From positions 37,881 to 101,880 of the IMG/VR virus record IMGVR_UViG_3300031911_000001: DNA of 64,000 nucleotides; one strand, written 5' to 3'. This DNA comes from a virus (lineage: Duplodnaviria; Heunggongvirae; Uroviricota; Caudoviricetes). The notes under the pieces were generated by a model that saw nothing but the letters and a program-made list of their open reading frames with translations, had not been told where the DNA came from and made no database searches. Both the position numbers and the translations under genes were made by a program. Positions 7,845-33,911 of the stretch are shown here, one piece after another (position 1 is the stretch's first letter; each line of letters opens with the position of its first letter).

Positions 7845-7852
7845 ATTTTTGT

Positions 7853-9258: not shown

Positions 9259-9273
9259 TTATCAAAGAATTGT

Positions 9274-10545: not shown

Positions 10546-10571
10546 CTAAGTAACCATGAAGGAACAAAATC

Positions 10572-11776: not shown

Positions 11777-11876
11777 AGGTTTTGCCAGTTTATCAAAACT
11801 GGCTGGTGGAAGTTGAATCGAGTAAAACCGGTTCAGCCCTAGTTTTCTCCCAAGGTTTTCACAAAACGTTGGATCT

Positions 11877-11954
11877 GCCCCTGTAGCTCTTAACTGGTAG
11901 AGCGACTGCCTTGTAAGCAGAGGGTTGGCGGTTCGAGTCCGTCCGGGGGCACCA
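11877..11954 (+). tRNA. tRNA-Thr (TGT)
   Basis: Acceptor gcccctg/cgggggc+A+CCA, D-arm tagctcttaactggtagagc, anticodon loop ctTGTaa, T-arm ggcgg-ttcgagt-ccgtc. Confidence 0.8.
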
Positions 11955-11977
11955 GATTTTTGATAAAGGAAAAGAAG

Positions 11978-12118
11978 ATGGTTGCAAAGCGTTTTGAGGT
12001 TCGTCACAACAATGACATCTATCACGTGTTTGACACACGTCTCTACATCGTGATTGATGCATACCGTGACAAGCAATCGGCTGACGAGCATGTCGATCAG
12101 CTGAACGGCAAGAAGTAA
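11978..12118 (+). CDS. small hypothetical protein (46 aa)
   Basis: MVAKRFEVRHNNDIYHVFDTRLYIVIDAYRDKQSADEHVDQLNGKK. RBS aaaggaaaag. Confidence 0.45.
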   Translation: MVAKRFEVRHNNDIYHVFDTRLYIVIDAYRDKQSADEHVDQLNGKK

Positions 12119-12249
12119 GAAGGCGGAGGCTTCAATGCCTCCCATTAGGCCAGGATGTTTGTAAGGCGTTATTGTGGGTGCCTCCCACTAGCTGTCGGTG
12201 GAAAGGGACACGGCAACCCGGTTCCCCTGATTAAGCATCCTGGCCTAAT

Positions 12250-12342
12250 GGGCATCTTAGCCGAGCTGGCCTAGCGGCAACGGTCTTGAAAACCGAAGGC
12301 TCCGAAAGGGGTGTGTGAGTTCGAGTCTCACGGTGCCCGCCA
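12250..12342 (+). tRNA. tRNA-Ser (TGA), type II
   Basis: Acceptor gggcatc/ggtgccc+G+CCA, anticodon stem cggt/accg with loop ctTGAaa, long variable arm, T-arm gtgag-ttcgagt-ctcac. 93 nt. Confidence 0.8.
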
Positions 12343-12529
12343 AATTTGTGTGAGATTGAAATGTGAAGGAAAACGGTTAAGTCTGCAGGCGCTTGCCGTT
12401 AGTAGGTCACAAAGTAGTTGCTCAGGCTACCTGCACTTTTGATGTTGTCGCGAGTACGCCAACGGGTCAATGCAAACAGTACCGAACTCAAAAGATGCCG
12501 CCGGCGTCGGAACCGGCCACAAACCACAT

Positions 12530-12609
12530 CTCTCGTTAACTCAGTGGAATAAAAGAGTACTGCGCTACGAACGCAGGAGTCGGAGGTTCGAATCCTTCAC
12601 GAGGGACCA
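12530..12609 (+). tRNA. tRNA-Arg (ACG)
   Basis: Acceptor ctctcgt/acgaggg+A+CCA, anticodon stem ctgcg/cgcag with loop ctACGaa, T-arm ggagg-ttcgaat-ccttc. Confidence 0.75.
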
Positions 12610-12675
12610 TTATTTCTGCCTTGGGTTCGAATCCCACGGCGCGAGGGCTGAAGTGGACAGCAGGCAGAAATAATG

Positions 12676-12751
12676 GCCTAGATAGCTCAGACGGTAGAGC
12701 GGCAGCTTGAAAAGCTGTGCGTCACTGGTTCGATCCCAGTTCCGGGCACCA
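12676..12751 (+). tRNA. tRNA-Phe (GAA)
   Basis: Acceptor gcctaga/tccgggc+A+CCA, D-arm tagctcagacggtagagc, anticodon loop ttGAAaa, T-arm actgg-ttcgatc-ccagt. Confidence 0.8.
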
Positions 12752-12939
12752 AGATTGTTCATTGACGACTGGGTAATGTCGTGGATGTTCATGTGAAAGT
12801 CGTGTCCAGGAGGCTCTTGAGAAGATGGCACCGCCCTCCAGCAATGGAGTCCACCGGGAGTGGATGTAAAGAGATTAGAGTCGTGCGGTTGGTGGTTCGC
12901 CATCAACTGTCAAGGATCGGTGGTGACATCGGTCCACCC

Positions 12940-13015
12940 GGGCTCGTAGCTCAGCCGGGAGAGCAACTGCTTTGCAAGCAGAAGGTTGCAGGTTCGATTC
13001 CTGTCGGGTCCACCA
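12940..13015 (+). tRNA. tRNA-Ala (TGC)
   Basis: Acceptor gggctcg/cgggtcc+A+CCA, D-arm tagctcagccgggagagc, anticodon loop ttTGCaa, T-arm gcagg-ttcgattc-ctgt. Confidence 0.75.
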
Positions 13016-13537
13016 GTTTTGTTGATCGTCATGGGCAAGTCGTGACACGTGGGGAACGTAGACCATACACCGATGATCAACGCATTTTATTCGCCGAAGC
13101 TGTAGGTTCAGAGCCGTGATGCAGTACTCCACTCTAATGAGGGAGCGTTTGTGAGGTCAATACTCACCGGCAAATGGTTTGGAGAGTAGTTAGGATGTCG
13201 GGGTGAAATCCCATCATTTAAAGAGTCGTATGGCATTACCCTGATCCCCCACTGCAAGGATCGGAATGTTGTGCCCGGGGAAAGAACAAGCACAGTTCAT
13301 GTGGTTATCGACTATTCGTGCTCTAGAGCTCAGGGCATGAGGTTGAACGTTCAAGGGCGAAGCCTTGGACTAAATCGGCGGGTGTAATGACGGAAAGACC
13401 CAAAGAGATGCCACGTTGAGACCCGTAGATCGTTTGGCTGTCGAAAGCACACTACCTACTCCCAATTCAACATTAGACCCGCCCACGTTATGGGTAGAAG
13501 ATCGGTCGTTTATTAGGGCCTACATGGATCGTCCTCC

Positions 13538-13609
13538 GGACCGCATGCACCGGAGTAAGGCCTCTTTCGAGAGGCCGATGGGTGGGTTCGATTCCCATCA
13601 GGTCCACCA
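13538..13609 (+). other. tRNA-like element with canonical T-arm and CCA end (gtggg-ttcgatt-cccat, caggtcc-A-CCA) but 6-nt anticodon-like loop and degenerate D-arm
   Basis: ggcctc-tttcga-gaggcc hairpin. Acceptor pairing 5/7. Confidence 0.3.
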
Positions 13610-13617
13610 GTTTCAAT

Positions 13618-13693
13618 GCGTGCTTAGCTCAGTTGGTAGAGCAGTTGAGTGCCACTCAACAGGTCGCAGGTTCGAACCCTGTAGCCCGCACCA
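13618..13693 (+). tRNA. tRNA-Gly (GCC)
   Basis: Acceptor gcgtgct/agcccgc+A+CCA, D-arm tagctcagttggtagagc, anticodon stem gttga/tcaac with loop gtGCCac, T-arm gcagg-ttcgaac-cctgt. Confidence 0.8.
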
Positions 13694-13743
13694 GTTTCAA
13701 TGATTGATGACTCAATGCAGTGTATAATGACTGCTTTTGGGAC

Positions 13744-13998
13744 ATGAACATGAAACCTATTCGCCTCATCTTCAACATCTACCGGACGCTTCGGAAGAAG
13801 CCAATCGTCCAGTCGGTTGAAATCTACATGAAGTCCGGCAACGTGATTGTCATCGACAATGTGATCGGAGATATCACTTACACGTATCAGGGCAACCAGA
13901 TCACCTATCTGAAGGTCAAGCAGGCCCCGGGACACAATGTAGCGATTGAATCCATCGACTTGAGCCAGATCGAGGGCTTCAAGAGCAAAGCATACTAG
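13744..13998 (+). CDS. small hypothetical protein (84 aa)
   Basis: ORF track 13720..13998 begins at GTG. ATG at 13744 follows a TATAAT box at 13723-13728. Confidence 0.45.
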   Translation: MNMKPIRLIFNIYRTLRKKPIVQSVEIYMKSGNVIVIDNVIGDITYTYQGNQITYLKVKQAPGHNVAIESIDLSQIEGFKSKAY

Positions 13999-14008
13999 AA
14001 AGAGCATT

Positions 14009-14344
14009 ATGATCGACGACAACTTCCGCAAAGCATTCCTGACCGGCACCGATGACACCGGGCGTCACATCGTGACTTCGGCTCGCACAGGTCGTACCTA
14101 CTTCGTAGAGGCGATCATCACCGAGAAGACCCCTTCGTGGGGTTCGGTGGACCCGGCAACCGGGAACCTGATGCACAAGAAGGGCGACGGGAAACATCTG
14201 GGTGGCGTGAAGCCGGCTCAGTCCATGATCACTCTCGAGAACGGTTTCGATAAGGTCCATGAACTGGGCCACGGAACGTCACCGTATGCGAAGATCGAAG
14301 AACTCGACGCTCAGTACCCCGACAAGGAAGCTGTAGCGGCGTAA
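14009..14344 (+). CDS. hypothetical protein (111 aa)
   Basis: ORF in tRNA island with plausible RBS. Confidence 0.5.
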   Translation: MIDDNFRKAFLTGTDDTGRHIVTSARTGRTYFVEAIITEKTPSWGSVDPATGNLMHKKGDGKHLGGVKPAQSMITLENGFDKVHELGHGTSPYAKIEELDAQYPDKEAVAA

Positions 14345-14439
14345 GGAATTGAAGTATCGTCGGGGTTGTTCCGGCTTCCGCTTCGATGGGCAGTTTTCAT
14401 CCGGTTCTGCGCCTTGTAAAAACCGGCTCCTATTCTGTG

Positions 14440-14516
14440 TGGACCGTCGCCAAGCTGGTTAAGGCCGGGGATTGTGATTCCCCTATGCGTGGGTTCGAAT
14501 CCCATCGGTCCAACCA
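14440..14516 (+). tRNA. tRNA-His (GTG)
   Basis: Acceptor tggaccg/cggtcca (perfect)+A+CCA, preceded by G(-1). Anticodon stem gggga/tcccc with loop ttGTGat. T-arm gtggg-ttcgaat-cccat (close to E. coli tRNA-His). Confidence 0.8.
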
Positions 14517-14526
14517 CACAATTTCG

Positions 14527-14604
14527 GGGTCGCTAGCTCAATCGGTTTAGAGCACCGGGCTTTTAACCCGGGGGTTCTGAGTTCGAGTCTCAGGCGGCCC
14601 ACCA
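14527..14604 (+). tRNA. tRNA-Lys (TTT)
   Basis: Acceptor gggtcgc/gcggccc+A+CCA, anticodon stem ccggg/cccgg with loop ctTTTaa, T-arm ctgag-ttcgagt-ctcag. Confidence 0.8.
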
Positions 14605-14612
14605 AGGTTTTC

Positions 14613-14690
14613 GGATTGCTAACTCAACTGGTTTAGAGTACCCGCCTCTTAAGCGGGAGGTTCTGTGTTCGACTCACAGGCAATCCACCA
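14613..14690 (+). tRNA. tRNA-Lys (CTT)
   Basis: Acceptor ggattgc/gcaatcc (perfect)+A+CCA, anticodon stem cccgc/gcggg with loop ctCTTaa, T-arm gtgtg-ttcgact-cacag. Confidence 0.8.
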
Positions 14691-14702
14691 CTACAGGAGA
14701 AG

Positions 14703-14861
14703 ATGATGAGCAGAACAGTCAAAGGCGGTAAGGGACCGGGATTTGAATACTGGGGCAAGCGTCCCTTCTCGGGTGTCAGTCCCAGCAAAGAGAACAAGCA
14801 GATCACCCACAAGATCGAACGCCAGCGCAACAAGAAGCTGGACAAAGCCGAGAAAGACTAA
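14703..14861 (+). CDS. small basic protein (52 aa)
   Basis: MMSRTVKGGKGPGFEYWGKRPFSGVSPSKENKQITHKIERQRNKKLDKAEKD. Strong RBS caggagaag. Confidence 0.5.
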   Translation: MMSRTVKGGKGPGFEYWGKRPFSGVSPSKENKQITHKIERQRNKKLDKAEKD

Positions 14862-14959
14862 GTAGATACGTTACGCAGGTATTGCTCGACTGAGGGTGAA
14901 AACCCCTCCCGGGACTGCGCCCGCTATAACCGGAGATGAGTACCGGTTTACAACATTTT

Positions 14960-15035
14960 GGGACGTTAGCTCAGCTGGTAGAGCAGCGGATTGTCTATCC
15001 GCATGTCAGGGGTTCGAATCCCCTACGTCCCGCCA
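14960..15035 (+). tRNA. tRNA-Asp (GTC)
   Basis: Acceptor gggacgt/acgtccc (perfect)+G+CCA, anticodon stem gcgga/tccgc with loop ttGTCta, T-arm cagggg-ttcgaat-cccct. Confidence 0.85.
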
Positions 15036-15089
15036 GTTTTTATTGACCACATGGGGCTAGAGTTTTGAAAGCCGAAGTGTCGTCAATAC

Positions 15090-15164
15090 AGCCGATTAGC
15101 TCAGAGGCAGAGCGGCTCCCTTACAAGGAGAAGGTCGACGTTTCAAAATCGTCATTGGCTACCA
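15090..15164 (+). tRNA. tRNA-Val (TAC), unusual T-loop
   Basis: Acceptor agccgat/attggct+A+CCA, D-arm tagctcagaggcagagc, anticodon loop ctTACaa, T-arm gacg-tttcaaaat-cgtc (non-canonical). Confidence 0.65.
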
Positions 15165-15170
15165 TACAGA

Positions 15171-15237
15171 GGTGCTGTAGCTCAGTTGGTTAGAGCGCAG
15201 GATTCATAACCCTGAGGCCGGTGGATCATTCCCACCT
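15171..15237 (+). tRNA. tRNA-Met/Ile2 (CAT), elongator-type, unusual T-loop
   Basis: Acceptor ggtgctg/tagcacc+A+CCA, D-arm tagctcagttggttagagc, anticodon loop ttCATaa, T-arm ggtgg-atcattc-ccacc. Confidence 0.65.
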
Positions 15238-15251
15238 AGCACCACCAGAAC

Positions 15252-15277
15252 AAGACCCTTCGGGGTCTTTTCTTTTG
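15252..15277 (+). terminator. rho-independent terminator closing the tRNA array
   Basis: aagaccc-ttcg-gggtctt followed by ttcttttg. Confidence 0.7.
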
Positions 15278-15297
15278 CCCTTTCTTTCATCGAAGTG

Positions 15298-15356
15298 TTG
15301 ACGGTCGTCATGAACCTCCCTACAATAGGACATCAACAACCACTTGGAGAAGTGAA
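15298..15356 (+). promoter_or_regulatory. conserved early promoter + leader, copy 1 (TTGACG-N17-TACAAT, leader CATCAACAACCACTTGGAGAAGTGAAATG)
   Basis: Seen in sequence. Shares the core CCACTTGGAGAAGTGAAATG with 8 other sites. Confidence 0.7.
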
Positions 15357-15563
15357 ATGCGCAAATTCAAAATGACTATCCTCTGTTCTGTCCAGGTCGA
15401 GGTTCTTGCAGAACTGACCGAAGACGGCACCTTCGTCAGACATGTGGTTGGCGTCAAACATCCGACTGCCGAAGAGGTCATGGCGGCACTAGAAACCCAT
15501 CCCGGTGTCGGTGGCTTAGAAGAGCTCGACTCCCACTACGCCAACGCAAAGGATTTCCAATGA
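15357..15563 (+). CDS. small early protein (68 aa)
   Basis: ATG directly follows the conserved leader. Confidence 0.65.
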   Translation: MRKFKMTILCSVQVEVLAELTEDGTFVRHVVGVKHPTAEEVMAALETHPGVGGLEELDSHYANAKDFQ

Positions 15564-15760
15564 AAACCATGTACTTGGTCCTTGACGGCCTGACCCCGGA
15601 AGACTTCATCCTTCAGCACGTCATACAGACATACGAATTGGATGAGGATCAGGCCAAGGCCATCATCCAAGGACTGAAGGACAACGGGAGTTACCAAGAC
15701 CTTTACAATAGGGCGGTCGAGGTAATCGACGGATTTAAAAAGATGATGGAGGTAAAGTGA
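15560..15760 (+). CDS. small early protein (66 aa)
   Basis: ATGA overlap with previous gene. Confidence 0.6.
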   Translation: MKTMYLVLDGLTPEDFILQHVIQTYELDEDQAKAIIQGLKDNGSYQDLYNRAVEVIDGFKKMMEVK

Positions 15761-15969
15761 TGAGCAAGACCAAACTTCGCCGAGGAATCGGCCACATGGG
15801 CCGTGTCTTCCAATACGGCACCGCAGTCGGCCCGAATGGTGCATCTCTTAGCATCCGGGCTTCTGTAAAGATGCAGGAGGATAACGCCCGAAAGCTGAAC
15901 AAGCTGCCAGAGTTCAAACGTGCTGCAAAGAAGCGCCAACGTCGTGATGACTTCCGGATGGCATCATGA
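15757..15969 (+). CDS. small basic early protein (70 aa)
   Basis: GTGATG overlap with previous gene. Lys/Arg-rich C-terminus. Confidence 0.6.
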   Translation: MMSKTKLRRGIGHMGRVFQYGTAVGPNGASLSIRASVKMQEDNARKLNKLPEFKRAAKKRQRRDDFRMAS

Positions 15970-16442
15970 ACTCCTGTGAAGAACTAGTCCGTGGCATGGA
16001 AGCCGTGGCTGGACCGGGTAATGTGCCCATCTCGTATCGCATCATGGCCCAGTACGGCCGTGAGTACAAGATCAAGACCAACCACCTGACCGGCAAAGGC
16101 CGCAAGCAGGAATGCTACCGGAACTCCGAGAACCTCGTGACGTTCCAGAGCCTCGATGACCGATACGTCTACGTCGAAGGCTACGCCATGAAGCCGGGGT
16201 TGATTCCCTTGTCCCATGCGTGGGTCGTAGACCTGAACGATGGCAAGGCAATCGATCCTACGTGGCCTGAGGGCGATGGCATCTACTTCGGGGTGCCATT
16301 CGACAACGAGTTCGTCAACGACTTCTCGATCAGTGTCGGCTGCTACGGAATCTTCGAGAACCTCTACAAGTTGCACCGTGCTCGCAACATCAAGCGGCTC
16401 GAAGACGTCATCAAATACCTCGAGTCAGGTATCGTCAAGTAA
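15966..16442 (+). CDS. hypothetical protein (158 aa)
   Basis: ATGA overlap with previous gene. Confidence 0.65.
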   Translation: MNSCEELVRGMEAVAGPGNVPISYRIMAQYGREYKIKTNHLTGKGRKQECYRNSENLVTFQSLDDRYVYVEGYAMKPGLIPLSHAWVVDLNDGKAIDPTWPEGDGIYFGVPFDNEFVNDFSISVGCYGIFENLYKLHRARNIKRLEDVIKYLESGIVK

Positions 16443-16489
16443 GTAAACCACGGGTCATTGAAGGCCCGTCATTTACCATACAGGTTCAA

Positions 16490-16579
16490 GGGCGGTTGGC
16501 AGAGAGGCCGATTGCAGGGGGTTGCTAACCCCTAGGCTCCGCAAGGGGTCCACAGGTTCAAATCCTGTACCGCCCGCCA
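16490..16579 (+). tRNA. tRNA-Ser (GCT), type II
   Basis: Acceptor gggcggt/accgccc (perfect)+G+CCA, anticodon stem ggggg/cccct with loop ttGCTaa, long variable arm, T-arm cacagg-ttcaaat-cctgt. 90 nt. Lies outside the main array. Confidence 0.8.
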
Positions 16580-16595
16580 ACTCTACGGAACCTGT

Positions 16596-17018
16596 ATGTC
16601 AGCACTCTACAATCACATCCGAGCCGAATGGGTCGCTGCCCGACAAGGCAGAATCGAGCTCAAGGCGACTGCTCTCGGCACCATCATTTCTGATCTGGAC
16701 CGCATTGCCAAGGACGAGCAACGTGAGGTCCGAGACTCAGACGTCTTCAATCTGGCACTGAAGTACATCAAGGGCATCAACGAGACCTTGGATGCTCTGC
16801 TGAAGAACGCACCGTCGGACGTGCGCATCCCCCGAATTCAGTTCGAGAAGACGATCTACCAAGAGCTCCTGCCGTCTCAATTGACGCCAGACGAGATCAA
16901 GAAGATCATCCAGCAAAACCACCTGACCGGTGTCAAGGACATCATGACGTACTTCAAGCACCACTACGTTGGCCGGTACGATGGAAAGGTACTCTCAGAA
17001 ATCGCCAGGACAGCATGA
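16596..17018 (+). CDS. hypothetical protein (140 aa)
   Basis: ORF. Confidence 0.6.
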   Translation: MSALYNHIRAEWVAARQGRIELKATALGTIISDLDRIAKDEQREVRDSDVFNLALKYIKGINETLDALLKNAPSDVRIPRIQFEKTIYQELLPSQLTPDEIKKIIQQNHLTGVKDIMTYFKHHYVGRYDGKVLSEIARTA

Positions 17019-17326
17019 AATCAGCCATTATCTACACGCAGGCCGGAGACCGTACCTACCGGTTCATCTGGTACGAAGACCTGCTTAAACGGGCGCAAAT
17101 CGGCTTCCGTGTAGTAGAGCTCCCACGTCTCGAGAACCAGTGTCAGGGGTGCATCCTGAAGTGGGACTTCTCGGTCAGAGGCAACCACATGGATGACTAC
17201 GGTAATCGCATGGGTTGCACCGCTGACCAGTACCGAGACTTGACATACGTCATTGGATGGGATCACAGCTGCGGAACAACTGAAATCAGATCAGAGAAGC
17301 AACTCAAAGAATGGATCGAATCATGA
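17015..17326 (+). CDS. hypothetical protein (103 aa)
   Basis: ATGA overlap with previous gene. Confidence 0.6.
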   Translation: MKSAIIYTQAGDRTYRFIWYEDLLKRAQIGFRVVELPRLENQCQGCILKWDFSVRGNHMDDYGNRMGCTADQYRDLTYVIGWDHSCGTTEIRSEKQLKEWIES

Positions 17327-17793
17327 AGCAAATCTACGTCGCAGGCTTCGCCTTCAATGGTGATCGTGTCCTGCTCATCGAGAAGACGAAGCCTGAATGG
17401 CAGGCAGGGAAGCTCAACGGTATTGGTGGCAAGGTCGAGAAGTACGACCACGACGAATACGCCGCCCAATGCCGTGAGTTCTGGGAAGAGACTGGCATCA
17501 GCACCAATGCCCTCAATTGGACCAAGTTCGACGTCGAACGATTCGATCATGCCGAAGTCCATTGGTTCTTCAACCCGGTTGTCAACATTGACTCATTCAT
17601 CAAGACTACCGAGGAGCAACCGGTGATTGTTCGAGTCAGTGACGTCATCGGTGAAGGATTCAATCCATACGACGATGGCAAGATGTGTCTCTATAACTTG
17701 CCCTATCTGCTACTAAAAGCATGGACTTTCGTCTTCAATGGTGGTCCTCACCATCAGATTCCCAATCTTAAGGCCTCATACTACACTGCGTAG
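17311..17793 (+). CDS. Nudix hydrolase (T4 NudE-like)
   Basis: Nudix box GGKVEKYDHDEYAAQCREFWEETGI. Confidence 0.75.
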   Translation: MDRIMKQIYVAGFAFNGDRVLLIEKTKPEWQAGKLNGIGGKVEKYDHDEYAAQCREFWEETGISTNALNWTKFDVERFDHAEVHWFFNPVVNIDSFIKTTEEQPVIVRVSDVIGEGFNPYDDGKMCLYNLPYLLLKAWTFVFNGGPHHQIPNLKASYYTA

Positions 17794-17829
17794 CAATTGT
17801 AAAGTGTAAGTAAGCAGGGAGATACCAAT

Positions 17830-18465
17830 ATGAAACTAATCAACAAACTGGTGTTCGCTGCTATTATGCTTGTCACTTGCACTGCCGTGACTACACAGCA
17901 ACTGCAGCAGACCGAGAAGATCATTGAGACGGAGCAGTCTACGATTGCTGTCGTTCGTGACAAGATTGACAAGTCCATCACCGGTGACAAGCTGGTGTTC
18001 GGCAGTGTGGTTCACCTGAAGAAGCAGGTCGGCGTAGACAACATCCGGATCATCCAGCGCAAGGGTGCGTACAACTGTGCCCGGGGTGAGTTCATCATCA
18101 AGGAAGTTACCGCCTTTGACAAGTCCGGTAACGAGGTCAAGGATGAAAACATCAAGACCGATGTGATCATGACGCCGAACATCGACACCGTCAAGCGAGA
18201 GTTCAAGTTCATGTGTGCCGATCCTACACCGGCTCCTGTAGTAGAACCACCTGCACCGCCGCCTCAGATCATCACGGTTCCGATCCCTGTGATCATTGAA
18301 GCCGTCGAGGAAGCACCGAAGAAGGCCCGTCCGAAGCCAGCAGTGAAGAAGCCTGAACCGGCACCGAAGCCAATCGCCAAAGCCCCTGAGGCACCCAAGG
18401 TCAAGGCTCCTGTTGTTCAAAAACAACCACTCAACGCCGGACAACGTACTGATCTGGTAGACTAA
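17830..18465 (+). CDS. secreted/membrane protein with Pro/Ala/Lys-rich repetitive C-terminus
   Basis: N-terminal hydrophobic segment. C-terminal PTPAPVVEPPAPPP...KKPEPAPKPIAKAPEAPKVKAP low-complexity repeats. Confidence 0.6.
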   Translation: MKLINKLVFAAIMLVTCTAVTTQQLQQTEKIIETEQSTIAVVRDKIDKSITGDKLVFGSVVHLKKQVGVDNIRIIQRKGAYNCARGEFIIKEVTAFDKSGNEVKDENIKTDVIMTPNIDTVKREFKFMCADPTPAPVVEPPAPPPQIITVPIPVIIEAVEEAPKKARPKPAVKKPEPAPKPIAKAPEAPKVKAPVVQKQPLNAGQRTDLVD

Positions 18466-18472
18466 TGCACAT

Positions 18473-18553
18473 GGGGGAGTGACGGGAATCCTTGGTATAC
18501 CTCGGGGCCTCAAAAGCTCTGGTCTGTGGGTTCAAGTCCCACCTCCCCTACCA
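18473..18553 (+). tRNA. tRNA with Leu anticodon CAA, Leu-like D-arm, discriminator A, but short (5-nt) variable arm (second class-I-like tRNA-Leu)
   Basis: Acceptor gggggag/ctcccct+A+CCA, anticodon stem ggggc/gctct with loop ctCAAaa, variable ggtct, T-arm gtggg-ttcaagt-cccac. Confidence 0.5.
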
Positions 18554-18613: not shown

Positions 18614-19162
18614 ATGCCACTGACAAAAGTACCCGCCAAGATTCGCAAGAAGGTTGAGGCTCGTATCCAATGGACCCTCGATTCGCTGGCCTTCCTGGCT
18701 CCTCGGAGCATCCCCCGCTACAAGATCACCGCCACCTATGACATAGAAGGTACGGCCGCAGGCTATGCCATCGACAAGACCGGTGTCGTCGAGCTCAACC
18801 CGATCCTGCTCATAGAGAATGTCGATGAGTTCATCAAGCAGATCGTTCCGCACGAGGTCGTCCATATCATCGTCGGTAGGCTGTGGAAGGATGCCGCCTT
18901 TCATGGTCCCCAGTTCACGCGACTCATGCAGATTCTGGGTCTGCCAGTCTCATGCTTCCATACCTTTGATACCGACCGCTGTAAGCAGGCCGACCCCGAC
19001 GTCTTCGTCTACCGTTGCATGTGTCAGCACACCACCAGACACGAGGTGACCGAGCGTACTCACAATATGAGGCAAAAGAGGCCCATCACTTGTAAACTCT
19101 GTCAACATCCACTACAATACAGCCACACACGTCAACTGAGGAAAAATCATGGAACTATTTGA
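18614..19162 (+). CDS. SprT-like zinc metallopeptidase domain protein
   Basis: HEVVHIIV (HExxH) plus C-terminal CxxC...CxxC zinc ribbon. Confidence 0.6.
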   Translation: MPLTKVPAKIRKKVEARIQWTLDSLAFLAPRSIPRYKITATYDIEGTAAGYAIDKTGVVELNPILLIENVDEFIKQIVPHEVVHIIVGRLWKDAAFHGPQFTRLMQILGLPVSCFHTFDTDRCKQADPDVFVYRCMCQHTTRHEVTERTHNMRQKRPITCKLCQHPLQYSHTRQLRKNHGTI

Positions 19163-20522
19163 GATCATCAAAACTCTGCAGGAAACCAAGGGCACCAACG
19201 CCAAGATCGATGTGTTCAAGACACACGAGAAGAACCTGCTCCTCGTCGAATTCCTCAAGGCCACCTACGAGCCACGGATCAACTACTTCCTGCGGCCTGA
19301 CTTTCTGGCCAAGATGGATGCCGACTGGTATGCACAGGCCACGGCCCCTGCCGCCCAGAAGTTTGATATGTTCTTGATCGACACGATTCAAGACCTGCTC
19401 TGCAATCGTCGACTGACCGGCAATGCGGCCCGTGAGTACATCATGAACATCTACCTCGGCCTCAGTCCAGAAGAGCGTCCCCTGCTGATCATCATGTTGG
19501 CTGGTGATCTCCGTGCCGGCGTCAGTACCACGGCGATCAACAAGGTCTGGCCGAACCTGATCAGCACAACCCCGTACATGCGTTGCGGCCTTCCCAAGCA
19601 TACCGACCTTGAGGAATGGTTCAAGAGCGGAGAAGTGATCTACGCCCAGACCAAGGCCGACGGCACCTTCACCAACTTCGAGGTCAGCCTCGGGGCCTAC
19701 TCGGTCTACTCCCGTCAGGGCAAGGTGTACCCGAACGTCTTCGATGACATCTTCAACCAGCTGAAGCAACACATCAACGGACCGACCGTCTTCCTCGGCG
19801 AGTTCCTGGTCAACAAGGATGGGGTGATCCTTCCTCGTCAAGAAGGCAACGGCCTCCTGAACAGCTTGGCACAGGGCGAAGACCTCCCGAAAGGCCACAC
19901 GGTCGAGTACCACGTCTGGGACGCAGTGCCCAAGATCTACTTCAAGAAGAAGGGCGAATACGACTGCCCGTACAAGGACCGTCTGGAGTACGTCCGTCAA
20001 TGTGTCGGTCCTGCTGGCACTGGTCCGGTCTTTGTCTCCGACACCGAGATCATCAAGTCATGGGCAGAGGCAAAGGCCCACTTCAAGAAGATGCTCAAGG
20101 CAGGCCAAGAAGGCAGCATCATCAAGCTCGGTTCGATGAAGTGGGAAGACGGCGACTCTGTCGGGCAGATCAAGCTGAAGCAGGAAACGGTCGTCGAGCT
20201 CAAGGTCGTCGGCTTCCGTGAAGGCCGTGGGAAGAATGCCTCCCTGTTCGGATCGATCATCGGCCAGACCGAGGACGGATTGCTGGAAGTCGGCGTCTCT
20301 GGCATCAAGGACGCGCTCCGCAAACACATCAGCGAGAACCGTGAGCTGTACCTCGGCAAGATCATGGCGGTCAAGGGCAACGGGGTGATGTCCCCGCAAC
20401 CGGACACCGACGGCAAGTACTCCATGTACCTGCCCCGCCTTGTCGAGTTCCGTGACGACAAGATGGTGGCCGACACCCTGCAACAGGTGATCGACCAGTT
20501 CGAAGCAGCGATGGAGGACTGA
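19149..20522 (+). CDS. ATP-dependent DNA ligase (T4 gp30-like)
   Basis: Motif I active-site lysine in YAQTKADGTF. 457 aa. Confidence 0.8.
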   Translation: MELFEIIKTLQETKGTNAKIDVFKTHEKNLLLVEFLKATYEPRINYFLRPDFLAKMDADWYAQATAPAAQKFDMFLIDTIQDLLCNRRLTGNAAREYIMNIYLGLSPEERPLLIIMLAGDLRAGVSTTAINKVWPNLISTTPYMRCGLPKHTDLEEWFKSGEVIYAQTKADGTFTNFEVSLGAYSVYSRQGKVYPNVFDDIFNQLKQHINGPTVFLGEFLVNKDGVILPRQEGNGLLNSLAQGEDLPKGHTVEYHVWDAVPKIYFKKKGEYDCPYKDRLEYVRQCVGPAGTGPVFVSDTEIIKSWAEAKAHFKKMLKAGQEGSIIKLGSMKWEDGDSVGQIKLKQETVVELKVVGFREGRGKNASLFGSIIGQTEDGLLEVGVSGIKDALRKHISENRELYLGKIMAVKGNGVMSPQPDTDGKYSMYLPRLVEFRDDKMVADTLQQVIDQFEAAMED

Positions 20523-20821: not shown

Positions 20822-20828
20822 GAAACAC

Positions 20829-20887
20829 TTGACGGTGCCTTTCAATTCGTTATAATTGAGGCACCATAAACCACTTGGAGAAGTGAA
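20829..20887 (+). promoter_or_regulatory. conserved early promoter + leader, copy 2 (TTGACG-N16-TATAAT...CCACTTGGAGAAGTGAAATG)
   Basis: Seen in sequence. Confidence 0.7.
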
Positions 20888-21028
20888 ATGAAAGTCATCT
20901 ACACACTCAAGCGCCCCGGCGCACCTGTCTCCAAAGTCTTCCGTAGCACGTGCCGCTTCGAGACTTTTCTGTTCACGGCACTTGGCTACACGGTTCGCAA
21001 GACCGAAGTCCTTCACAAGGAGTTTTGA
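20888..21028 (+). CDS. small early protein (46 aa)
   Basis: MKVIYTLKRPGAPVSKVFRSTCRFETFLFTALGYTVRKTEVLHKEF. Directly after the conserved leader. Confidence 0.55.
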   Translation: MKVIYTLKRPGAPVSKVFRSTCRFETFLFTALGYTVRKTEVLHKEF

Positions 21029-21029
21029 C

Positions 21030-21251
21030 ATGGTCCATTTCATGCCGCAACTGGCCATGTCTCACGGCTTTGACGAACATGCTTTCGTCGAGTGGGCAGA
21101 ACGTGAAGGTCAACGCCACGGCGCCTTCCTCGATACCGTCACCCTGCAAACTGCGGTGACCACGTGGAACGTCGACGAGCTCATCCTTGCCGCCCGTGAG
21201 GCCGGCTTCTTCCGCATCAACAACCCGATGGCAACACCTGTAGGAGTCTGA
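21030..21251 (+). CDS. hypothetical protein (73 aa)
   Basis: ATG 21030 one nt after previous stop. Track ORF 20982..21251. Confidence 0.5.
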   Translation: MVHFMPQLAMSHGFDEHAFVEWAEREGQRHGAFLDTVTLQTAVTTWNVDELILAAREAGFFRINNPMATPVGV

Positions 21252-21252
21252 C

Positions 21253-21474
21253 ATGGCAAACCATTTCATCTTTCGCGTCAGTGGCCGTGGCGAGTTCCCT
21301 GTGGACATGCTGCGCCGTGACGAGTGCTACCCCTACCGTACCGAAGACGCCATGATCATCCTTGGCGGCGCAACTGCCCCCAAGCGTGTCGGGGTTTTCG
21401 TCTCCCCACGTCCTCCCCTGATCGACCGATGGGACAGCTTCGGTTGGAACGTCGAACAGGTCATCACCGTATGA
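21253..21474 (+). CDS. hypothetical protein (73 aa)
   Basis: ORF. Confidence 0.5.
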   Translation: MANHFIFRVSGRGEFPVDMLRRDECYPYRTEDAMIILGGATAPKRVGVFVSPRPPLIDRWDSFGWNVEQVITV

Positions 21475-21761
21475 AAAAACTCCTCGTTCTGCTGCTGGCC
21501 TCGTTGGCCGTCGTCTCTCATGCTGCTACGCATATCGTCTATCAACCGGTTGCGATACCGATGGACAAACCGTGCTTCGTGTCTCTGAGTCCTACCTTCG
21601 TCCTCAACGCATCGATGGTGATCCGGATTGAGTATGGTGAGTTCAACGACTTCGGGAAAGAGCCTGTTACCATCTTCTGGCACCCTGCCAGTCGCAGGGC
21701 CATGAAGGGCGACCATGTCAAGACATTCCTTGACGGCGCAAAACAGTGCAAAGGAAACTGA
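21471..21761 (+). CDS. secreted protein with signal peptide (96 aa)
   Basis: MKKLLVLLLASLAVVSHAATH signal peptide. ATGA overlap. Confidence 0.55.
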   Translation: MKKLLVLLLASLAVVSHAATHIVYQPVAIPMDKPCFVSLSPTFVLNASMVIRIEYGEFNDFGKEPVTIFWHPASRRAMKGDHVKTFLDGAKQCKGN

Positions 21762-21762
21762 C

Positions 21763-22143
21763 ATGACGAAAGTCTGGAAAATCACCACACCGAGCCGCAG
21801 CCGCTCTTGGTTCACCAAGGACCGAGCAGAGGTTGATCGGTTCTCCGATCAGGGCCATGAGATCGAACTGTTCCTCAAGAAGGAAGAGGCTCCTCTGAGC
21901 ATCCATGAACAGAAGGCTGTGCTGGCCGACCTGCAGGGCATAGACTGCCTGATCAACTACCACGATTGCAAAGAAGTCGAGGCCGACGCCATCGAACCGG
22001 GATGGGGCGCCGCCAACGGCAAACGCTCTCTGGAGCTCCTGGCGCTTGGTCGAGAGATCATCGCTCGTGATCCTGAAATCTGGACCGAGAGCCAGAAGAA
22101 GCCCTTTGAGCTCCGCTACAGCGAGAAGGTGGCAAAGAAATGA
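21763..22143 (+). CDS. hypothetical protein (126 aa)
   Basis: Start MTKVWKI with RBS aaggaaa. Track ORF 21715..22143. Confidence 0.55.
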   Translation: MTKVWKITTPSRSRSWFTKDRAEVDRFSDQGHEIELFLKKEEAPLSIHEQKAVLADLQGIDCLINYHDCKEVEADAIEPGWGAANGKRSLELLALGREIIARDPEIWTESQKKPFELRYSEKVAKK

Positions 22144-22385
22144 AGCTGGACACCCTCATCCCCATCGGAGCCCTGCTCTCGATTATCGGCGTTGCCGGCA
22201 TTGTGTACCTCGAGAAGGAACACCCGATCCAATGCCTCGACATGGCAAAGGTCAAGAGCATCAACCGGGTCATCCATCGGTCAGCTGAGATCGAGTTCAC
22301 TGATGGCAGAATCGTGACGCTCCAACAGCCGTCCATTCGTCCGGGTGACAACTACTGCGTCAAACATGCAAGGCGGTGGGATTGA
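22140..22385 (+). CDS. small membrane protein (81 aa)
   Basis: ATGA overlap. Hydrophobic N-terminus. Confidence 0.55.
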   Translation: MKLDTLIPIGALLSIIGVAGIVYLEKEHPIQCLDMAKVKSINRVIHRSAEIEFTDGRIVTLQQPSIRPGDNYCVKHARRWD

Positions 22386-22858
22386 TGACTACGAAGATCG
22401 AATCATTCTCAGGTGAGTACGCTTTCCTCTCGAACTTCTGGGACGTTCGGGTGGAGTACGATGGCGGGTGGTTCAGTAGCGTAGAACATGCCTATCAGGC
22501 AGCGAAATACCCGAAAGAGGCCCGTTCCGTGTTCCGGAATGGTATTACCCCGGGACAGGCGAAACGCCTTGGTGGTGCCGCAGAGTTGCCGTGGGATTGG
22601 GAACACAAGAAGATCGAGATCATGACCCGGTTGGTCCTACAGAAGTTCAGGAACAACAACCCGCTCAAATTCTTGCTTTTGTCTACCGGCGATGCCACCC
22701 TCATCGAGGGCAACCACTGGGGAGACCGGTTCTGGGGCCAGTGTGGCGGAACCGGTAAGAACCATCTTGGTCGCATCCTGATGTACGTCAGGACGGTGCT
22801 CCGAAACGAAGAGACCCTCAGCTACTTCTTTACTGAGGAATCCCCCGTTGAAGACTAG
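22376..22858 (+). CDS. NADAR-domain protein (YbiA-like N-glycosidase / ADP-ribose-processing family)
   Basis: GEYAFLSNFW...VEHAYQAAK...GQAKRLG...WGD...GKNHLGRILMYVR matches the YbiA/NADAR signature. Confidence 0.7.
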   Translation: MGLMTTKIESFSGEYAFLSNFWDVRVEYDGGWFSSVEHAYQAAKYPKEARSVFRNGITPGQAKRLGGAAELPWDWEHKKIEIMTRLVLQKFRNNNPLKFLLLSTGDATLIEGNHWGDRFWGQCGGTGKNHLGRILMYVRTVLRNEETLSYFFTEESPVED

Positions 22859-23081
22859 CCTGATTGCGTTTGGCTTCTTGGTCTTTGCGCATTAGTTGCA
22901 ATTCAACGTCAAGGGTCCATGGCAACATCGCATTGAATTCTGTAATGCTGATGTTGCCACTTTTCTTGAGTAGGTGCTGGAGCTCGAAATATTCCATCAA
23001 GCTCCTACCTTCAAACATCAGCCGAAAAAATCGGTAAGCTCCGTGAATTGAAGCTTGTGCTTCGTTCCACAGCTCTTGCAC
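22830..23081 (-). CDS. questionable small ORF (83 aa)
   Basis: Fills a 160-nt gap but overlaps the ends of both neighbours. Confidence 0.25.
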   Translation of the reverse strand: MQELWNEAQASIHGAYRFFRLMFEGRSLMEYFELQHLLKKSGNISITEFNAMLPWTLDVELQLMRKDQEAKRNQASLQRGIPQ

Positions 23082-23749
23082 GTGAGCTCCTGCTCATGGA
23101 AGATATGCGGTGCCGACAACAAGAAGACCTTGTGGATTTTGACCTTCTCTTTCATGTCGAGGTTCTTATACCACTTGATCAAGTCTTCCGGCTTCTGGTC
23201 CTTGGCATAGTGGATGTCGTCGCCATCGAAGATGAAGTCGATGCACGAGACAATCGTATCCACCTCGGTCATCCCTTCTTCCATGTTCATGAGCATGTCG
23301 AAGTCCGGGTACTTGAACTTGATTCCGATGGTGTCGGTGATCATGACCTTTGTCTCGTGGCCGTCGATTTCACGCATGTCCACTTTGCGCAGATCGATTG
23401 AGACGTCAATTGGAGTGTTGCACTCCTTCGTCTCGCCGGCCTCACCCTCGACCTTGTGCTTGCAGATGTAATTGAATTCCATCATTTCACCGACCGATTT
23501 TTCACGGAGGCGAATGAAGATCAATTCAAGCACAAATACAGGAATTGAATCGACGTCGTAATTCGGAGTCGTAATACACTCCTTAATGATCTGACGGATC
23601 GCGTTGACCTGTTCCTTTTTCTCTTTGGTGTCCTGCACGGCGAGGAGAACACTCTCCTGACCGACTGTGAACGGGACGTAGTCAAATGGTCCGGCAGGAA
23701 GGAATTTGCTCTTAAAACGACTGACGTTTTTAGGGATGACTGGAAGCAT
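23018..23749 (-). CDS. hypothetical protein (243 aa) with C-terminal CxxC zinc-ribbon
   Basis: Long ORF, only minus-strand gene in this plus-strand block. CKSCGTKHKL motif. Confidence 0.6.
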   Translation of the reverse strand: MLPVIPKNVSRFKSKFLPAGPFDYVPFTVGQESVLLAVQDTKEKKEQVNAIRQIIKECITTPNYDVDSIPVFVLELIFIRLREKSVGEMMEFNYICKHKVEGEAGETKECNTPIDVSIDLRKVDMREIDGHETKVMITDTIGIKFKYPDFDMLMNMEEGMTEVDTIVSCIDFIFDGDDIHYAKDQKPEDLIKWYKNLDMKEKVKIHKVFLLSAPHIFHEQELTCKSCGTKHKLQFTELTDFFG

Positions 23750-30547: not shown

Positions 30548-31384
30548 ATGAAGCGTAATCTTTCTTTCCTCGTGGCAGTGGCCACACTGGCAATCTCGTC
30601 TGCAGCCTTTGCCACTCCCGGCAACAACGGCAATGGCGGTGGTGGTTGCGGCAACGGCCAAACGACAAACGGTTGCCCAGGCAATCAGCCCGGCCCTCAA
30701 GGCCCGCAGGGTCCACAAGGTCCAGTCGGTCCACAAGGTCCAGTCGGTCCACAAGGTCCGCAGGGTCCGGTAGGTGCAACTGGTCCCCAAGGCCCGCAAG
30801 GAGCAACGGGAGCAACTGGCGCCACCGGCGCTACGGGTGCCCAAGGCGTTGCTGGTCGTGACGGAACCAACGGTACGAACGGCCGTGATGGTGTCAATGG
30901 AACCAATGGCGTCAACGGTACGAACGGGACCAATGGTCGAGACGGTGCGGCCGGACGTGATGGAGCCGATGGTGTTGCTGGTGCCACTGGCGCTACCGGT
31001 GCTCAGGGCGTCCAAGGCGAACGCGGCCTGCAGGGTGAAAACGCCCCGGATGCTGTGACCGTCCAACAGATGACCAGCACGGTGGCAGCGGCTCAAGCCC
31101 AAACCCAGATGCAGATCAACGGGCTCCGTGACGAAATCCAAGGCGTTGCCAAGGCTGCCTATTCGGGTGTTGCCGCAGCGATGGCCCTGCAGATGCCTTC
31201 GATCAATCCGAACAAGCCGGATGCACTGGTGATGCGCATGGGCGTGGGCACCTACAAGGGCCAGTCGGCGGTGGGCATCAGCTTCCGTCGAAGCAACAAG
31301 GCCGGTGACTGGTCGGTGACGGGTGGCGTGTCCCATACTTCCCACGGTACGGCGGCTGCTCTGGGCATTGAACACTCCTTCTAA
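30548..31384 (+). CDS. secreted collagen-like (Gly-X-Y) protein with YadA-like C-terminal beta-barrel anchor (trimeric-autotransporter-like)
   Basis: Signal peptide [22 protein letters not shown]. About 40 GXY triplets ([19 protein letters not shown]...[10 protein letters not shown]). C-terminal [15 protein letters not shown]...[47 protein letters not shown] ending in Phe, like YadA/TAA membrane anchors. Confidence 0.65.
30655..31045 (+). repeat. tandem Gly-X-Y coding repeats (collagen-like triplets)
   Basis: Repeated ggtccacaaggtccagtcggtcca... units within the CDS. Confidence 0.8.
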
Positions 31385-33635: not shown

Positions 33636-33911
33636 ATGGGATACGTCAACGATCTCTCTGCCGCCGACTTCAAGTCTTTGCTTGCAGGCATGGTGGAATC
33701 CAACGACCGGCATCACAGACCGACGGCATCGGCAATCCATCTGAGCAAGTACCTCCAACTCCTGGATGGGAAGCTGACGCTAGAGGACTTCAAGGCAAAG
33801 GCGAACCTCTACTCTATCGTCGACCTTCGCCGGTTGAAGAAGGATGGTCTTTTCATCGACGTTTACCTGCGCATGGTCAAAGAATTGAAGAAAGTTGTTG
33901 ACGACCGTTGA
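33636..33911 (+). CDS. hypothetical protein (91 aa)
   Basis: ORF, TGATG overlap. Confidence 0.5.
   Translation: MGYVNDLSAADFKSLLAGMVESNDRHHRPTASAIHLSKYLQLLDGKLTLEDFKAKANLYSIVDLRRLKKDGLFIDVYLRMVKELKKVVDDR

Follow-up and report, generated by a model that had tools for sequence, protein, structure and literature searches.

The window analyzed here, a 64,000-nt stretch of the genome of an uncultivated, ~168-kb T4-like phage, contains a gene for a stand-alone NADAR protein that, by sequence, is a clear homologue of the validated anti-DarT factor AdfN of phage Bas32. With moderate confidence, we read this protein as an orphan NADAR ADP-ribosyl N-glycohydrolase, encoded in an early transcription unit, that would counter the action of host DarT1-type toxins on phage DNA. 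No ADP-ribosyltransferase or DarT is encoded among the ORFs flanking the gene, which gives it the status of a toxin-less phage orphan.

Such a role for orphan phage NADARs is already known and no longer new, its anti-DarTG1 form having been published between 2023 and 2025. Orphan proteins (AdfN) from phages T4, Bas32, and Bas60 remove guanine ADP-ribosylation (G-ADPr) and restore plaquing on DarTG1 hosts, and AdfN-Bas32 was shown both to neutralize the DarT1 toxin inside cells and to rescue three phages plated on such hosts (PMC11825919). Hydrolysis of guanine-linked ADP-ribose is common to all NADAR subfamilies tested so far (PMC11125620, PMC12945103); on RNA, G-ADPr is removed by NADARs of all families and cytosine ADP-ribosylation (C-ADPr) by YbiA-type and general NADARs (PMC12945103). 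Specificity in vivo cannot be read from sequence, because Escherichia coli YbiA and T4 gp30.3 both hydrolyze G-ADPr in vitro yet leave uninfected cells unprotected against DarT1 (PMC11125620).

The NADAR ORF ends at position 22858 and can begin either at a GTG (22376) or at an ATG (22385). The original prediction had delimited the gene as 22376 to 22858; the gene and its domain hold, but its start is probably the ATG and not the mechanically chosen GTG, since the 157-aa call in the public contig begins there, homologues start at the same position, the ATG overlaps the stop codon of the preceding ORF (TGATG), and a Shine-Dalgarno-like stretch (GGTGGG/AAGG) lies 7 to 16 nt 5′ of it. Coordinates of the gene, its active-site codons, and its neighbors are given in Table 1.

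Table 1. Positions in the window of the NADAR gene, its active-site codons, and neighboring features
Feature	Position	Strand	Basis or remark
NUDIX gene	17311-17793	+	4.6 kb 5′ of NADAR, co-oriented
ATP-dependent DNA ligase	19149..20522	+	PF01068; PHROG 114 E=2e-98; co-directional, 1.9 kb 5′ of NADAR
Sigma-70-type promoter-like site TTGACG-16 nt-TATAAT	20829..20856	+	11/12 matches, best in scanned region
Six small packed/overlapping ORFs (46, 73, 73, 96, 126, 81 aa)	20888..22385	+	Public contig calls
NADAR-domain CDS, 157 aa	22385..22858	+	ORF list, public contig gene call, PF08719, PHROG 1017, AF2/Foldseek
E34 codon GAA	22484..22486	+	Equivalent to catalytic E43 of PnNADAR, E88 of E. coli C7 DarG1, E36 of T4 AdfN
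K41 codon AAA	22505..22507	+	Equivalent to K50 of PnNADAR, K95 of C7 DarG1, K43 of T4 AdfN
E108 codon GAG, third acidic residue	22706..22708	+	Equivalent to E125 of PnNADAR; invariant in family
D114-W117 codons, GDRFWG loop	22724..22735	+	Equivalent to D130 and W133 of PnNADAR, pyrophosphate contacts
gp51-like baseplate hub assembly catalyst gene, convergent	22830..23081	-	PHROG 634 E=1.3e-9
gp26-like baseplate hub gene, late structural	23018..23749	-	PF12322 T4_baseplate E=2.4e-49; PHROG 150

Assignment to the NADAR family is far beyond chance at the sequence level. The Pfam NADAR profile (PF08719) matches residues 11 to 140 of the protein over profile positions 9 to 163 of 163 (E = 3.1e-23; 83.3 bits versus a gathering score of 35.1), and PHROG 1017 matches at an E value of 8.6e-41. 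Searches of PDB sequences return E. coli YbiA (2B3W; E = 5e-16) and the Phytophthora nicotianae NADAR (8BAU, hereafter PnNADAR; E = 2e-3), improving to 2.7e-35 and 3.2e-18, respectively, with a family profile, which matches no other solved NADAR chain. The same two structures are the only significant Foldseek matches in the PDB to an AlphaFold2 (AF2) model of the protein (mean pLDDT 88.8, pTM 0.83), with TM-scores of 0.80 for YbiA and 0.72 for PnNADAR. As modeled, the protein would adopt the YbiA-like fold, with an α-helical core and two small flanking β-sheets; it is a single-domain protein with a minimal YbiA-like core and no N-terminal extension. The YbiA/NADAR membership originally predicted is thus upheld, as the domain search points to PF08719 and to no other family and the fold matches agree. 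Among the PADLOC defense-system models, the protein matches only a weak candidate family, PDC-M42C.

When aligned with PnNADAR, the protein retains seven of eight ADP-ribose-binding and catalytic residues, counting one Arg-to-Lys change. Six are identical (E34=E43, K41=K50, W72=W89, E108=E125, D114=D130, and W117=W133, window residue given first), R93 of PnNADAR is conservatively replaced by K76, and R79 is replaced by G64 at a position that is variable in the family. Across 76 homologues, E34, K41, W72, E108, and D114 are invariant (E34 also in a set of 78), and K76 and W117 reach 90% conservation or more. The spacing of the E-x6-K motif is that of characterized NADARs, residue roles for the equivalents of E34 being taken from PMC11543638 and PMC11825919. 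At the third acidic position, Glu occurs in YbiA and general NADARs, Asp in DarG1, and His in the T4 gp30.3 type (PMC11543638). The catalytic residues on which the original prediction was to be checked are therefore in place (E34, K41, and E108), along with D114, W72, and W117; in the AF2 model, the active-site loop comprising residues 111 to 122 is of low confidence (pLDDT < 50).

The phage is identified as T4-like by homologues of gp55, gp33, gp32, gp26, gp51, gp53, and gp48 in the window, and it represents a deep-branching lineage whose core proteins share only 37 to 51% identity with their counterparts in any phage sequenced to date. A megablast search with 7 kb found no near-identical GenBank phage and returned only a 75-nt match in the ribonucleotide reductase (RNR) gene. 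The NADAR gene occupies the ligase/RNR region, where the neighboring DNA enzymes are the ligase, a SprT-like protein, and RNR, and some 25 tRNAs plus a permuted tmRNA, a heavy investment in translation, lie 4 to 15 kb 5′ of it. It is the last gene of a tightly packed run of seven ORFs headed by the promoter-like site, which sits inside an intergenic gap (20822-20887). The six ORFs 5′ of NADAR have no Pfam matches and include one with a signal peptide, one with an N-terminal transmembrane helix, and one with a match to a PHROG of unknown function. No terminator-like site was found on the plus strand between 20856 and 22858, and the end of the plus-strand unit is marked by the gp51-like gene (called as 55 aa at 22830-22997 in the public contig), the 3′ end of which overlaps the final 29 nt of the NADAR coding sequence.

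Judged from its sequence, the promoter-like site is strong and probably drives early transcription of the run closed by the NADAR gene. Overall counts of sigma-70 promoters show no enrichment relative to shuffles (11 versus 8 ± 3), and only the subset of the form TTGACG-N15-18-TAYAAT is enriched, with four in the window versus 0.01 expected. The T4 late promoter TATAAATA occurs nowhere in the 64 kb and so is of no use for classifying gene timing. Promoter, co-orientation, and gene packing lend partial support, drawn from sequence context, to the placement of the gene among early genes in the original prediction.

Comparisons with characterized AdfN proteins covered those of Bas32 and T4. Of the proteins with tested activity, the closest is AdfN-Bas32 (E = 3e-30; 43% identity over 143 aa), which comes from T5-like phages (Bas32 IrisVonRoten and Bas33) and is likewise a stand-alone phage NADAR of ~150 aa with a minimal core. 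The two proteins have in common the catalytic E and K and the Glu of a LIEGN(T/H)WGD motif, and the AdfN-Bas32 gene also lies among nucleotide-metabolism and replication genes (nrdAB-thyA-rnh), its start overlapping a small upstream ORF. They differ in 57% of residues and in phage lineage (a T4-like myovirus in the window versus a T5-like siphovirus), and the window protein carries an acidic, 15-residue C-terminal tail (ETLSYFFTEESPVED) without counterpart in Bas32 and most homologues. Identities to the homologue set of the window protein are 41 to 55% for the Bas32 type and 31 to 43% for E. coli YbiA. Published precedent for AdfN, together with the identity to AdfN-Bas32, favors the anti-DarT role put forward in the original prediction.

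AdfN-T4 (gp30.3; PF08010, Phage_30_3) is also an orphan NADAR of a T4-type phage, encoded ~1 to 2 kb from the DNA ligase gene: in T4, adfN (30.3) lies ~1.1 kb from ligase gene 30 and upstream of it, whereas the NADAR gene of the window is downstream of the ligase gene. An N-terminal LSNF...E-x6-K motif is common to both proteins, but the AdfN-T4 type has His at the position of E108. AdfN-T4 works only in a T-even context and leaves C-ADPr in place (PMC11825919, PMC12945103). Orthology to gp30.3 was rejected because BLASTP aligns only 50 residues (E = 0.04) and a tblastn search of the window with gp30.3 is empty, and membership in PF08010 was rejected because there is no match at E ≤ 1 and the residue in question is Glu (E108), not His. 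E. coli YbiA, the best match by structure and by PDB sequence (34 to 36% identity), likewise has the minimal fold and carries Glu as its third catalytic residue; it differs in being encoded on a chromosome, in a LexA-controlled operon with dinG. DarG1 of the DarTG1 systems (BC4488-type; e.g., E. coli C7 and G. lovleyi) belongs to the same superfamily, and the same chemistry, hydrolysis of guanine-N2-ADP-ribose on DNA by type IV antitoxin logic, is proposed for both. Assignment to the DarG1 type was nevertheless rejected: no DarT1 gene adjoins (the flanks hold the ligase, the gp51- and gp26-like genes, and small ORFs without known function), the N-terminal β1-β2-α1 extension that forms a basic DNA groove is missing, as the protein begins ~4 residues before core strand 1, and the residue that is a catalytic Asp in DarG1 (D171 of the E. 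coli C7 protein) is E108 here. PADLOC matches confined to the weak family PDC-M42C and solved-chain matches confined to 2B3W and 8BAU also told against this type.

Relatives of the protein are found in 459 phage records of GenBank and in at least 561 contigs of IMG/VR, the closest of them deriving from phage-like contigs. When the 1,121 ORFs of 80 related viral loci were clustered all against all, no gene family recurred near NADAR in more than seven loci. One apparent cluster of neighbors is simply the ORF antisense to NADAR. A conserved partner gene was rejected on this evidence and because the small ORF upstream of the window NADAR is unrelated to those in Bas32 and in locus L008. A YAcAr/SLOG gene lies directly 5′ of NADAR in 7 of the 80 loci (and near it in locus L010), and 6 of the 80 (as well as locus L007) have an RNA ligase no more than 4 kb away. 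Such neighbors in some relatives hint at other NADAR substrates; the window contains no SLOG, Macro, or RNA-ligase homologues of them.

The YAcAr/SLOG associations bear on the possibility that the window NADAR acts on small ADP-ribose derivatives, such as NAD-derived immune signals or toxic ADP-ribose metabolites, perhaps together with the phage NUDIX hydrolase. Iyer et al. (PMC9503650) proposed such a function for phage NADAR, Macro, SLOG, and Nudix proteins, and a co-oriented NUDIX gene does lie upstream (Table 1). We regard this reading as unlikely: the cited NADAR literature contains no NADAR activity on such signals, the SLOG and Macro neighbors of relatives are missing from the window, the substrate of every NADAR tested is base-linked ADP-ribose in nucleic acids (PMC11125620, PMC12945103), and the nearest tested relative is an anti-DarT1 factor (PMC11825919). 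Nor do we expect the substrate to be ADP-ribosylated RNA, with the enzyme protecting tRNA, rRNA, or mRNA (including the tRNAs of the phage) from RNA-targeting toxins or taking part in RNA repair. The activity of NADARs on RNA G-ADPr and C-ADPr, the RNA ligases near some relatives, and the tRNA and tmRNA genes upstream all speak for this idea, to which we give quite a low probability, given that the window has no detected RNA ligase or KptA-like gene and that the neighbors of NADAR are DNA enzymes. Moreover, the anti-phage RNA ADP-ribosyltransferases tabulated in PMC12945103 modify adenine N6 (CmdT) or the 2′-OH (RhsP2), and NADARs are absent from the listed reversers of these modifications.

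A housekeeping role, in which a YbiA-type N-glycosidase destroys reactive intermediates of the riboflavin pathway, is highly improbable. The best solved-structure match is YbiA, Glu is the third catalytic residue as in the YbiA family, and the equivalog model TIGR02464 is hit at E = 1e-19; yet at 71.3 bits the protein misses the curated cutoff (73.7), scores much as AdfN-Bas32 does (66.3), and stays far short of the 169.5 of E. coli YbiA. With so marginal a miss, the window protein is best read, on sequence, as a peripheral relative of the YbiA equivalog, and AdfN-Bas32 was itself placed outside the YbiA cluster (Johannesman et al. 2025, PMC11825919). There are no rib genes among the neighbors or among the best 25 of 35 Pfam families for the 94 window ORFs, and the phages and viral contigs that carry relatives have no evident need for such housekeeping. 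Most database names of these proteins (“ribA/ribD-fused protein,” “N-glycosidase,” “GTP cyclohydrolase II”) derive from the riboflavin function. Least credible of all is that the protein works not by catalysis but by binding and blocking a DarT-type toxin stoichiometrically, in the manner reported for AdfA and ICP1 AdfB, although non-enzymatic anti-DarT factors are known in phages (PMC11481870; AdfA, PMC11825919). That the catalytic residues are invariant across the family speaks for selection to keep the enzyme active, two-hybrid assays detected no binding of AdfN-T4 or DarG1 to toxin (PMC11825919), and the window protein is dissimilar to T4 AdfA (gp61.2), of which, as of T4 Alt, tblastn finds no homologue in the window.

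A broader function is conceivable, if doubtful: as a Glu-type (Bas32/YbiA-like) NADAR, the protein could be a self-sufficient eraser of both G- and C-ADPr on both DNA and RNA that functionally replaces gp30.3, a context-dependent His-type enzyme, near the ligase gene of this divergent T4-like lineage. It might then protect beyond DarT1, for example against pierisin/ScARP-like, YarT-like, or Rhs-delivered ADP-ribosyltransferases, and might shield the phage's own translation module of ~25 tRNAs and tmRNA.

Under the anti-DarT1 reading that we favor, host sigma-70 RNA polymerase probably transcribes the NADAR gene from the promoter-like site, as the last of seven ORFs in an early unit within the DNA-metabolism region of the phage. 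Bases of the replicating phage DNA would be modified by host ADP-ribosyltransferases of the DarT1 type (or by others directed at guanine or cytosine), and the NADAR protein would most likely strip ADP-ribose from those bases, restoring DNA replication as phage AdfN does. Its location among replication and nucleotide-metabolism genes, like those of the T4 (ligase) and Bas32 (nrdAB-thyA-rnh) enzymes, is in keeping with an AdfN-type role.

The finding opens no new question, and it adds a deep-branching, uncultivated T4-like phage as a new lineage to the phages with orphan NADAR erasers. It justifies the annotation [quoted passage not shown] in place of “swarming motility protein,” “GTP cyclohydrolase II,” or “hypothetical protein.” For T4-type phages, it indicates that the NADAR used is not always the His-type gp30.3 enzyme, and it lends support to the published view that DarT-like ADP-ribosylation of bases is a widespread pressure on phages, against which NADARs have been recruited several times.

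A NADAR (YbiA-like) gene had been proposed in this stretch, and domain, structure-sequence, and fold matches agree in confirming it. A six-frame ORF listing returns a plus-strand frame opening with GTG, for which an in-frame ATG at 22385 is the better start, giving a 157-aa product: the public contig with an identical protein has the same start called, the corresponding residue begins the homologues, the codon overlaps the stop codon of the preceding ORF (TGATG), and a purine-rich GGTGGG/AAGG stretch lies 5′ of it. The protein matches Pfam NADAR (PF08719; E = 3.1e-23, 83.3 bits, gathering score 35.1) and PHROG 1017 (E = 8.6e-41). Its only matches to solved structures are Escherichia coli YbiA (2B3W; E = 5e-16) and Phytophthora nicotianae NADAR (PnNADAR, 8BAU; E = 2e-3); a profile from 76 family members recovers both (2.7e-35 and 3.2e-18, respectively) and no other NADAR chain. 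An AlphaFold2 model built on the 76-member alignment (mean pLDDT 88.8, pTM 0.83) has significant PDB fold matches to these two structures only (TM 0.80 and 0.72).

The catalytic residues are intact. ADP-ribose is contacted in PnNADAR by E43, K50, R79, W89, R93, E125, D130, and W133 (Schuller et al., PMC11543638). Mapped via HMMER alignment, E34, K41, W72, E108, D114, and W117 of the window protein are identical to E43, K50, W89, E125, D130, and W133, K76 conservatively replaces R93, and G64 differs from R79 (close homologues have G, R, Q, or K there). E34, K41, W72, E108, and D114 are invariant in the 76 homologues; the first two are equivalent to E36 and K43 of the T4 anti-DarT factor AdfN (gp30.3), mutation of which impairs counter-defense (PMC11825919). 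The sole poorly modeled part is the D114/W117 loop (residues 111 to 122, pLDDT <50).

The third catalytic position marks the subfamily: NADARs of the YbiA and general types have Glu, the DarT1-associated antitoxin DarG1 has Asp, and T4-type phage NADARs have His (PMC11543638, PMC11825919). The window protein has Glu. We reject a DarG1-like assignment (no adjacent toxin gene, no N-terminal extension, Glu instead of Asp), and the only PADLOC match is a weak one to candidate family PDC-M42C. Also rejected is the T4 gp30.3 type (pairwise E = 0.04, no PF08010 match, Glu instead of His); homologues of gp30.3, AdfA, or Alt are absent elsewhere in the 64-kb window. Nor is the protein a bona fide YbiA equivalog, scoring 71.3 bits on TIGR02464 (cutoff, 73.7) versus 169.5 bits for E. 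coli YbiA, although the two folds are alike. Judged by sequence, its nearest experimentally characterized relative is a NADAR carried by T5-like phages (Bas32; 43% identity, E = 3e-30), which scores similarly on TIGR02464 (66.3 bits) and shares 41 to 55% identity with the homologue set of the window protein, compared with 31 to 43% for E. coli YbiA. This 149-aa protein is 95 to 100% identical in 96 T5-like phage records by tblastn (e.g., IrisVonRoten and HildyBeyeler, designated Bas32 and Bas33 in the BASEL collection). A T4-type phage appears to carry a Bas32/YbiA-like Glu-type enzyme in place of the His-type gp30.3.

The source is an uncultivated T4-like myovirus. An identical NADAR protein is encoded on a 167.9-kb metagenomic contig (ENA ERZ27248661), and the window has counterparts of the late sigma factor gp55, the late coactivator gp33, gp32, gp26, gp51, gp53, gp48, and the large subunit of topoisomerase II, as well as an ATP-dependent ligase, NrdA, NrdB, and dCMP deaminase. 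GenBank phages include no close relative at the DNA level; the best phage matches are only 37% (ligase) and 51% (topoisomerase) identical. Within the tRNA array, where Rfam confirms 25 of 26 ARAGORN calls, lies a phage-encoded permuted (two-piece type) tmRNA. Permuted tmRNAs are characteristic of alpha- and some betaproteobacteria and of cyanobacteria, and this one may hint at the host. A further ORF pairs collagen triple-helix repeats with a YadA-like membrane-anchor domain, which is unusual in a phage gene, and could encode a fiber or adhesin-like protein.

The NADAR gene is the last in a codirectional, tightly packed ORF run that follows the ligase gene and meets two oppositely oriented late baseplate genes, one gp51-like and one gp26-like, head-on at its 3′ end. 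The 66-nt gap 5′ of the run holds the region's best sigma-70-type site (TTGACG-16-TATAAT), one of four TTGACG-N15-18-TAYAAT matches in the window (0.01 expected from shuffles), all probably strong host-sigma-70 (early) promoters of the phage; another lies just 3′ of a terminator-like hairpin that closes the tRNA array. No plus-strand terminator-like site intervenes between the promoter-like site and the NADAR gene. Together, these features support, without proving, transcription by unmodified host polymerase, meaning early expression, in line with the early operon originally predicted. Two small ORFs of this presumed early unit are predicted to be exported or membrane-bound, a signal peptide being present in one (MKKLLVLLLASLAVVSHA) and an N-terminal transmembrane helix in the second, and no family match exists for either. 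Nowhere in the 64-kb window does the canonical T4 late promoter TATAAATA occur, even though gp55-like and gp33-like late transcription factors are both encoded; the late promoter consensus in this lineage must differ from that of T4.

Coordinates of features in the window
Feature	Position	Strand	Remark
gp55-like late transcription factor gene	202-888	-	
tRNA array	7555-18553	+	
ARAGORN tRNA call	8930-9018		two-base anticodon; not among Rfam-confirmed tRNAs
Permuted tmRNA	10057-10469	+	ARAGORN tmRNA*, tag ANDAQMRIAA
RF04321 tmRNA_permuted	10090-10378		61.9 bits; gathering score 47
Terminator-like hairpin	15252-15269		
TTGACG-N15-18-TAYAAT	15298-15326	+	3′ of hairpin
TTGACG-N15-18-TAYAAT	20829-20856	+	5′ of NADAR run
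TTGACG-N15-18-TAYAAT	33898-33926	+	
TTGACG-N15-18-TAYAAT	45965-45992	-	
SprT-like gene	18614-19162	+	
Run ORF	20888-21028	+	public contig gene call, as for all run ORFs
Run ORF	21030-21251	+	
Run ORF	21253-21474	+	
Run ORF	21471-21761	+	predicted exported or membrane-bound
Run ORF	21763-22143	+	
Run ORF	22140-22385	+	predicted exported or membrane-bound
Run ORF (NADAR)	22385-22858	+	
NADAR ORF, GTG start	22376-22858	+	six-frame listing
Acidic tail, residues 143-157	22811-22855	+	
Collagen/YadA-like ORF	30548-31384	+	
AlkB-like gene	50812-51507	-	
QueC-like gene	62479-63273	-	

NADAR relatives are present in 459 GenBank phage records, spanning many host genera, and in at least 561 IMG/VR contigs; the nearest proteins in a 5.8-billion-sequence collection are only 54 to 59% identical, and the three of these that were examined are all on phage-like contigs. 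Annotation over hundreds of phage genomes is inconsistent: most are hypothetical, “swarming motility protein” (YbiA), “N-glycosidase,” or “GTP cyclohydrolase II,” with “glycosylase” and “putative riboflavin biosynthesis protein” also in use, and, among the matches listed, only Salmonella phage WP85 has an “antitoxin-like enzyme.” Clustering 1,121 ORFs from 80 related viral loci revealed no conserved partner gene. The commonest neighbor, a YAcAr/SLOG gene directly upstream of NADAR (at about position 4001), forms a recurrent two-gene module in seven loci (IMG/VR contigs L017, L023, L030, L032, L038, L040, and L063); RNA ligase neighbors NADAR in six, and a 5′-3′ exonuclease, AAA ATPase, and radical-SAM block, whose genes co-occur in the same four to five loci, probably reflects one phage lineage. 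The small ORF immediately 5′ of the window gene shows no relationship to its positional counterparts in Bas32 and in the related locus L008. As such, the NADAR gene is a mobile, stand-alone module.

NADARs hydrolyze the guanine-N2–ADP-ribose bond made by the toxin DarT1 and serve as antitoxins (PMC11543638); in vitro, every one of the four NADAR families clears G-ADPr from DNA, yet protection of cells against DarT1 is limited to some of them (PMC11125620). Johannesman et al. (PMC11825919) showed that DarT1 is neutralized, even in uninfected cells, by the unrelated orphan NADARs encoded by Bas32 (T5-like) and Bas60, and that these two proteins rescue RB69, T5, and Bas25 on DarTG1 hosts, with no rescue on DarTG2 hosts. 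The anti-DarT role in the original prediction is therefore the known function of this class, already published rather than new, and homology, the intact active site, and context support it here. On balance, we lean toward the window NADAR acting enzymatically, reversing the ADP-ribosylation of bases in phage DNA and so providing AdfN-type counter-defense against DarT1-like toxins.

Two other substrate classes stay in play because of the SLOG and RNA-ligase contexts seen in a minority of loci; the window has no homologues of these neighbors or of the exonuclease/AAA/radical-SAM block. Processing of small ADPr derivatives, proposed previously (PMC9503650) and favored by the SLOG-NADAR loci, seems unlikely, and RNA de-ADP-ribosylation, to which the RNA-ligase neighbors point, a shade more so; cytidine-ADPr in DNA and RNA is a further substrate of the YbiA-type and general NADARs, though not of DarG1 or T4 NADAR (PMC12945103). 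We regard a housekeeping N-glycosidase as improbable and toxin binding without catalysis, in a protein retaining its catalytic residues, as the least credible reading.

A gene for a SprT-like metalloprotease runs into the start of the DNA ligase gene, and an AlkB-like 2OG-Fe(II) oxygenase is also encoded; with NADAR, the phage has several enzymes reversing DNA adducts or damage. A PP-loop ATPase resembling QueC (SGGLDS motif; Pfam QueC, E = 4e-15) may point to DNA or tRNA modification of the 7-deazaguanine type, with no other queuosine-pathway gene among the best 25 of the window's 35 Pfam families.

The NADAR protein ends in an unusual acidic 15-residue tail (ETLSYFFTEESPVED), missing from most homologues and modeled with low confidence, whose codons share nucleotides with the 3′ end of the convergent gp51-like gene; speculatively, the tail is like the acidic ones through which phage SSBs interact with proteins. 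Overall, the NADAR ORF is real, keeps its catalytic residues, and probably belongs to an early transcription unit of this T4-like phage; its modest interest lies in the tail and in the apparent use of a Glu-type enzyme rather than a His-type one.
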